64,000 bases of DNA, taken from NCBI RefSeq assembly GCF_055900595.2, contig NZ_CM148325.1; one strand, 5' to 3'. The notes under the pieces were generated by a model. It ran no database searches, was not told the origin of the DNA, and saw only the letters and a list, made by a program, of their open reading frames with translations. Of the stretch, positions 63,180 to 63,900 are shown one piece after another (position 1 is the stretch's first letter; the number at the start of each line of letters is the position of its first letter). Made by a program: the position numbers and the translations under genes.

Positions 63180-63900
63180 GCATGGAAAGCGGAAGAAAAA
63201 GCGCAATGAGGTCGTAGGACGAACGGTTCGGGGAAGGCTGAAGAGTACGTATCTGGTCCTGAAGACCGGATAAACCTTCATCGGTCCAACGTTTAAGCCA
63301 CTTGTAGCTAGTGGCAGGAGAAATGCCGTAGTGACGGACCCTGTAAATAATTCTGTGTAACTGCCCACGATTAAAGGTGGCCGCTCAGGCGGTCACCGTA
63401 TTCGATAATAAATTGTGTGATTCATAGACATCGTTTCAATTTTCTCAGCTCAAGTTCAAGCTGGTTATTCTGTTCCTGTATATGCTCCTCATTGGGCTGA
63501 TAGTTTGCGTGAACGGCATCAGAGTATGGCGTTTTCTTAGCAAGTTCAAAGTAGAGCGCCATCGGAGTTATCAGCCACCCACAGCTGGTCAGGATGTTCT
63601 GCCACGAACTGACGATTCACACAATCGCCTGCGGCAACGACTTTCCTGCTGACTGTAAACAGAACGAAGGTCGGCGGTGAAATAACGGTCTTTGCCCTCA
63701 CCTACGCCATGGCCCAGCGCCCGGCTCATGTCGTAGCCATCGCTTTCACGCGGGCATCCATTGCGGCGTCGTTCAAAACCATACCTCCCCAGCCGCAAAT
63801 ACCGGGTAACCTGATACTTCACAATAAGATTGGTGCGTGGATGATAGATTGCCAAATAATAATCCATCAAGAAATAATGACAACAAAAAACATCAAACAT
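63180..63900 (-). mobile_element. degraded insertion-sequence / transposase remnants
   Basis: Minus strand encodes YRVRHYGISPATSYKWLKRWTDEGLSGLQDQ...PSPNRSS (transposase N-terminal HTH) and degenerate IS3-like orfB pieces (MSRALGHGVGEGKDRYF); no intact ORF. Confidence 0.4.

Follow-up and report, generated by a model that had tools for sequence, protein, structure and literature searches.

The final ~740 bp of a small islet in the Escherichia coli chromosome, forming its right-hand end, are with high probability non-functional wreckage from several rounds of insertion and deletion of insertion sequences (IS) at the islet's right edge. A total of five gene scraps were recognized in this debris, all on the minus strand, 77-160 bp in length and each with its own, distinct parent sequence (about 1.0-1.3 kb). 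The first-pass annotation had described positions 63180-63900 as holding, on the minus strand, pieces of at least one transposase with no intact open reading frame (ORF), a description borne out by translation and by profile and blast matches. The pieces, however, represent at least four different IS types, and the ISEc18-like 3' end, the 77-bp end of an IS256-family element and a 160-bp fragment of an alpha/beta-hydrolase gene had been overlooked. One-fifth of the debris is thus the scrap of a gene that is not of IS origin.

Location of the debris at the islet boundary

The window, that is, the whole stretch of 64,000 nt under analysis, is E. coli chromosome, and the islet occupies 57233-63887 (6.65 kb) between hipA and the F9 fimbrial operon (fmlA). 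By blastn against an islet-free strain (L009), homology on the left stops at window position 57232 (L009 position 5590), 119 bp past hipA, and restarts on the right at 63888 (L009 position 6001), about 380 bp ahead of fmlA, as expected from the earlier placement of the debris at an islet boundary. The 410 bp of hipA-fmlA intergenic DNA of islet-free E. coli are replaced here by the 6.65 kb of islet DNA. The annotated context includes hipB and hipA; in the records of islet carriers, an ankyrin-repeat gene is found on one side of the debris and, on the other side, a fimA-like gene and then ydeS, ydeR, ydeQ and ydeP, together the F9 (fml) operon. The chromosomal DNA beyond the islet is 79-83% identical to the sequence that precedes the annotated fimA (the F9 subunit gene, here called fmlA) in L009; in other genomes matching this segment, no annotated feature lies beneath the match. 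A repeat search detected no convincing terminal or att-like repeats bounding the islet.

The islet carries an ORF of 145 aa, a gene for an Xre/MbcA/ParS-type antitoxin, a gene for an IpaH/YopM-style leucine-rich repeat (LRR) protein, a partial helix-turn-helix (HTH) gene and a gene for an ankyrin-repeat protein. The LRR gene (58951-60477, minus strand) contains repeats at 59095-59820 and 60264-60316, a 60-bp tandem array and a 9-bp repeat encoding KNSKNSK; its product varies in length among strains, with 508 aa in the window, 499 aa in L014 and 460 aa in L001, and in L012 the gene is interrupted by IS100. A direct repeat of 69 bp with 91% identity (58171-58239 and 60722-60790) corresponds to duplicated portions of an Xre-type HTH gene, both of which are apparently partial. 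To the left of the islet, hipB, hipA and the 3' end of a yneO-type autotransporter gene (54547-57063) are present in the window; strain Z0117EC0005 (L001), nearly identical in other respects, has lost them by deletion.

The ankyrin-repeat protein (657 aa; 61170-63143, plus strand, with the stop at 63143) is effectively an orphan family bound to the islet: in a set of 5.8 billion proteins its homologues form only three clusters, of which two are labelled E. coli and the third derives from a metagenome contig on which the islet is also present. No sign of C-terminal truncation of this gene by the neighbouring debris was found, as the full-length homologues (651 and 602 aa) align over the entire query (100%), all of these clusters being near-identical and including no outgroup.

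Origin of the gene scraps

The segments of the debris and its flanks are listed in the table. The coordinates of the scraps were set by blastn against fetched reference copies, and the IS481-type HTH piece was placed by comparison with an intact transposase gene on a plasmid.

Segments of the right-hand end of the islet and the adjoining chromosome (window coordinates)
Position	Strand	Segment	Description
63144-63196	.	53-bp spacer	separates the ankyrin-repeat gene (stop at 63143) from the first IS scrap
63197-63337	-	internal scrap of an IS481-family transposase gene (ISEc19/YagA-like), codons 35-80	HTH/leucine-zipper region, YKWLKRW...GLSGLQD
63337-63413	-	IS256-family element end (ISEc39-like), 77 bp	last 13 codons (FIIEYGDRLSGHL*) and terminal repeat
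63414-63569	-	ISEc18-like right end, IS481 family	25-bp terminal inverted repeat, last 48 codons and stop
63570-63658	-	internal scrap of an IS3-family orfB (IS1203/IS629-like), 89 bp, 29 codons	start of the integrase core, VNRQFVAEHPDQLWVAD
63658-63817	-	alpha/beta-hydrolase gene scrap, frameshifted, codons 136-192 of a 352-codon gene	not IS-derived
63818-63887	.	70-bp AT-rich stretch, final bases of the islet	matches islet carriers only
63888-64000	+	conserved chromosomal DNA upstream of fmlA	gene start about 270 bp past the end of the window

The scraps were compared with copies of IS annotated in E. coli genomes and plasmids, and the outcome was positive. The HTH pattern YKWLKR...GL.GLQD noted previously was located by six-frame translation at 63336-63199 on the minus strand, where the motif reads RHYGISPATSYKWLKRWTDEGLSGLQDQ within the translation RHYGISPATSYKWLKRWTDEGLSGLQDQIRTLQPSPNRSSYDLIAL. 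The HTH itself is real, being matched by Pfam HTH_28, HTH_29, HTH_23 and LZ_Tnp_IS481 with E-values of 6e-6 to 1e-4 (22.9 bits for LZ_Tnp_IS481 against a cutoff of 22.2) and, as the best NCBIfam model, by the IS481 transposase (E 2e-6), and it represents the N-terminal HTH/leucine-zipper region of the IS481 family. It is not a true N-terminus as had been supposed, since the first 34 codons are absent; the scrap is cut at both ends and lacks a start codon. A closer relative than ISEc19/YagA is an unnamed IS481-family transposase of 384 aa (WP_181238252.1) encoded on IncI-gamma/K1 plasmids of E. marmotae and E. coli: residues 35-80 of the intact E. marmotae plasmid copy align with 36 identities in 46 aa (78%), with 87% nucleotide identity over 141 bp. 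ISEc19/YagA, an IS481-family element in the CP4-6 prophage of K-12, aligns to the scrap by its own HTH/leucine-zipper region (residues 31-76) at the lower level of 63% aa and 75% nucleotide identity. Against a parent of about 384 codons, the scrap keeps 46 codons and no terminal repeat, and has diverged with non-synonymous changes. The possibility that this HTH formed the N-terminus of the IS3-like piece was rejected, because it is of IS481 type and, on the coding strand, comes after the IS3-like scrap.

The 77-bp segment is the outer end of an IS256-family element, as indicated by both the transposase C-terminus and the terminal repeat. The outermost base of the repeat is 63337 (GACCCTGTAAATAATTC...) and the end is intact; copies at four independent loci share this outermost position as their start (GACCCTG...). 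At the transposase C-terminus, the peptide FIIEYGDRLSGHL can be aligned to FIIEFGDRLSEHL and FIIEYGDRLSDHL. At the nucleotide level, the segment is 100% identical to a relic that lies beside yjhR in K-12; the identity is 98.7% for L006, a longer pseudogene of the IS256 family, and 88% for the end of ISEc39. The same outer end, with terminal repeat and last 13 codons, is found in ISEc39 and its IS256-family relatives, but here the 77 bp stand as a solo end, the remainder of the element being replaced by the ISEc18-type end.

The ISEc18-like scrap begins with an intact 25-bp terminal inverted repeat at 63414-63438 (TGTGTGATTCATAGACATCGTTTCA), identical at 25 of 25 positions to both ends of an intact ISEc18 copy (L002), to which the scrap as a whole shows 89% nucleotide identity. 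The last 48 codons and stop (63568-63422) give 41 identities in 48 aa (85%) to residues 276-323 of the ISEc18 transposase, an IS481-family protein annotated by PGAP in E. coli MP1 (WP_001347735.1). To judge from its sequence, with both transposase and terminal repeat of IS481 type, this segment is a relic by descent of an IS481-family member. No DDE catalytic (integrase-core) domain is present in 63414-63569, as the piece begins at residue 276 of 323, past the core. From an element of about 1,021 bp only 156 bp are left; with its catalytic core, left end and promoter lost, the scrap cannot transpose. A separate ISEc18-like fragment of 113 bp (92% identity) was noted on plasmid NZ_CP051000.1 of E. 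coli O39:NM, under or next to the type III secretion effector gene espT, as another instance of an ISEc18-type IS near effector-like cargo.

The degenerate IS3-like orfB motifs pointed out in the first-pass annotation are accounted for by TVSRKVVAAGDCVNRQFVAEHPDQLWVAD at 63656-63570, which matches IS3-family copies annotated IS1203 (86-89% DNA identity). The scrap has 86-90% nucleotide identity to thousands of IS3-family copies, some of which are annotated "IS3-like element IS1203 family transposase", shows 25 identities in 29 aa to orfB, and matches positions 199-222 of the NCBIfam IS3 model. The likeness to IS1203/IS629 (IS3 family, IS3 group) is confined to orfB at the point where the integrase core begins; unlike these elements, the scrap has no orfA, frameshift site or ends. 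The orfA/orfB organization with programmed -1 frameshift is not seen in these 29 orfB codons, and no frameshift pseudoknot was found in Rfam. In the two O157:H7 genomes listed, matches were found at 20 and 22 places, counts that cover the whole 431-bp query. The O157:H7 lineage is known for its load of IS629, and the match counts are consistent with this.

The hydrolase scrap was compared with the intact gene for WP_001303808 of O157:H7, giving 77% nucleotide identity and, in two frames, 23 of 29 and 20 of 26 identical residues (~78% aa). This is a match at the level of paralogues. The gene for WP_001303808.1 in O157:H7 sits between paoD and ykgR, whereas the scrap here lies at a different locus, is cut at both ends and is frameshifted. 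Relative to the 97%-identical allele of L012, an extra deletion of 13 bp is present in the window after 63732.

For the two segments that match no gene, the 53-bp spacer had no match outside islet carriers by distant blastn against E. coli genomes and plasmids, the AT-rich stretch had none beyond islet carriers by blastn against the same two sets, and no plasmid match pointed to a plasmid origin of these 123 bp.

Junctions and formation of the mosaic

Two kinds of junction were distinguished. The IS256-type end at 63337 sits within the IS481-type HTH (junction 63336/63337), and the ISEc18 terminal repeat at 63414 sits within the IS256-type transposase gene (junction 63413/63414); the sequences at the debris junctions are GTAGTGACG joined to GACCCTGTAAAT and GATAATAAAT joined to TGTGTGATTC. 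An intact IS terminus placed against the interior of another IS, as at these two positions, indicates nested insertions. At 63569/63570, 63658, 63817/63818 and ~63197, the interiors of unrelated genes meet and share 0-2 bp, and such internal-to-internal junctions are indicative of deletion scars. The earlier proposal of past transposition and deletion is thereby supported by two IS-end insertion junctions and by the remainder.

No ORF spans more than 48 transposase codons, and no intact transposase reading frame exists in the debris. Of the ORFs on the minus strand, the longest (112, 103, 51 and 46 aa) are either chimeric or read out of frame, and none matched a family in Pfam or NCBIfam. A repeat search found no pair of terminal inverted repeats bounding an element, but single right ends without a partner, of ISEc18 type at 63414-63438 and of IS256 type at 63337. 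Since the left ends of all inserted elements have been deleted, the second copy of any target-site duplication is gone as well.

The geometry of these junctions suggests the following order. An IS481-type element would have been located at the islet edge, and an IS256-type element would then have inserted into its HTH-coding region at codon 34/35. An ISEc18-type element may have followed, inserting into the IS256-type transposase gene 13 codons ahead of the stop. At least four deletions with microhomology of 0-2 bp would have left only the right ends of the elements, and would also have fused the remnant to the IS1203-like and hydrolase scraps, which may be leftovers of a larger islet or DNA that arrived with an IS. 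As no intermediate was found, the order of events is read from junction geometry alone. The common orientation of the five scraps has a chance of about 1 in 16, is not significant, and is not required by the insertion and deletion model.

Decay of a single IS in place by frameshifts and point mutations, with all the transposase-like pieces belonging to one former gene, could be suspected from their location on one strand within 460 bp and from the fact that two of them are of the IS481 family. The pieces, however, trace back to four separate parents and resemble different annotated IS types, at identities of 63-100%; even within the IS481 family, the HTH piece is 35% identical to the corresponding part of ISEc18 against 85% for the C-terminal piece. 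In addition, on the coding strand both C-terminal transposase scraps come before the N-terminal HTH scrap, so that the order is non-colinear, and intact IS termini occur in the middle of the stretch. On these grounds a single decayed IS is ruled out, with virtually no chance of being correct. The pieces are individually short (29-48 codons), which might raise the question of chance similarity or of an assembly chimera without real IS material, but tblastn E-values of 3e-24 to 4e-17 (on a 1-kb target), genome-wide blastn E-values down to 2e-58, the exact 25-bp terminal repeat and the occurrence of the identical mosaic in a metagenome contig and in 17 genomes finished independently of one another refute this explanation, leaving it hardly credible. 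Repeated IS insertion and deletion at the islet edge thus stays the preferred reading.

The distribution of the mosaic was examined among 5426 complete E. coli genomes, of which 17 cover at least 80% of 63140-64000; among the 15 listed, the identity is 96.7-99.9%. The same mosaic occurs on one metagenome contig, in an islet that is ~95% identical. The occurrence in both sources argues against an assembly artefact. The same junctions are found in the 99.9% allele, the 97% allele and the ~95% metagenome islet, indicating that the mosaic predates the divergence of the known islet copies. In the 5426 genomes, no islet copy with a fuller ISEc18 or IS256-type element was detected, nor was the relic joined to ISEc18 outside the 17 carriers, and an exact scan of 100,044 species-representative genomes gave 0 matches to the oldest junction.

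One feature is not predicted by a purely random history of deletion. The relic beside yjhR (L003 3001-3077) shares its inner breakpoint with the 77-bp IS256-type end here, both copies losing the match to genuine IS256-like sequence after the same base (...GATAATAAAT), while the flanks differ on both sides. The K-12 copy, at another IS-scarred island edge in E. coli, the right end of the KpLE2 element, adjoins a truncated gene and has neither ISEc18 nor the IS481-type HTH beside it. The common breakpoint could be due to chance, to an AT-rich hot spot or to shared history.

Possible function and significance

Nothing in the debris can transpose or direct the synthesis of a transposase, and its DNA drifts neutrally. 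Substitutions are evenly spread over the codon positions in the two scraps compared with references (5/5/8 in the HTH scrap and 4/3/5 in the other), and amino-acid identity is lower than nucleotide identity in the scraps against the reference copies; together with the lineage-specific 13-bp deletion, these features indicate relaxed constraint. No Rfam family of structured RNA was detected on 62800-64000 at E-values up to 1.

Upstream of fmlA, the AT-rich DNA between the debris and the gene (63818-63999) is the only segment enriched in sigma-70-like hexamer pairs, with six against 1.4 expected, and one promoter-like pair (63849-63878, plus strand) faces fmlA and the fimbrial operon. The islet might have a regulatory side effect on the F9 fimbrial operon, since it has taken the place of the distal 410 bp of the DNA upstream of fml. 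The same replacement, the enrichment of promoter-like pairs with one directed toward fmlA, the 95-100% conservation of the mosaic in all islet carriers and the PGAP label of the HTH scrap, which is merely "helix-turn-helix domain-containing protein", could be taken as signs that the scraps have been co-opted, either as a domesticated HTH mini-protein or as IS-derived promoter or regulatory DNA for the F9 operon or for antisense transcription into the ankyrin gene. Co-option is nevertheless highly unlikely. In the HTH frame there is neither a start codon nor an ORF of at least 25 aa, and its substitutions show no third-position bias; the conservation of the mosaic does not exceed that of the neighbouring genes in the islet, and its carriers are closely related. 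Furthermore, the promoter-like sites lie in the AT-rich stretch and core DNA outside the IS scraps, consensus matches of this kind are weak evidence, and the search of Rfam gave no match.

The presence of a 100% identical copy with the same boundaries at two unrelated loci has a bearing on the 77-bp IS256-type end, which on this account might be a discrete unit, namely a movable solo end or a fixed hot spot of breakage or insertion within the IS. That this end is such a unit, or that the islet edge has rewired the upstream control of the F9 fimbriae, is highly improbable. The 77-bp relic was also considered as a miniature inverted-repeat element (MITE), and was rejected as its two ends, by eye, are not inverted repeats.

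Altogether, no function is evident for the debris, which is ordinary and already known: PGAP has three pseudogenes annotated there, the HTH scrap as noted above, the ISEc18-like scrap as "IS481 family transposase, missing N-terminus" and the hydrolase scrap as "alpha/beta hydrolase, frameshifted". IS scars at island edges are commonplace. With no mobile or coding function remaining, the importance of the debris is mostly that of book-keeping. It is the scar at the right-hand end of an islet that is rare (found in 17 of the 5426 complete E. coli genomes) and carries LRR and orphan ankyrin-repeat proteins. The edge of this islet was once a landing site for no fewer than four IS types and was later trimmed by deletions; the conserved junctions left behind could act as lineage markers for the islet.
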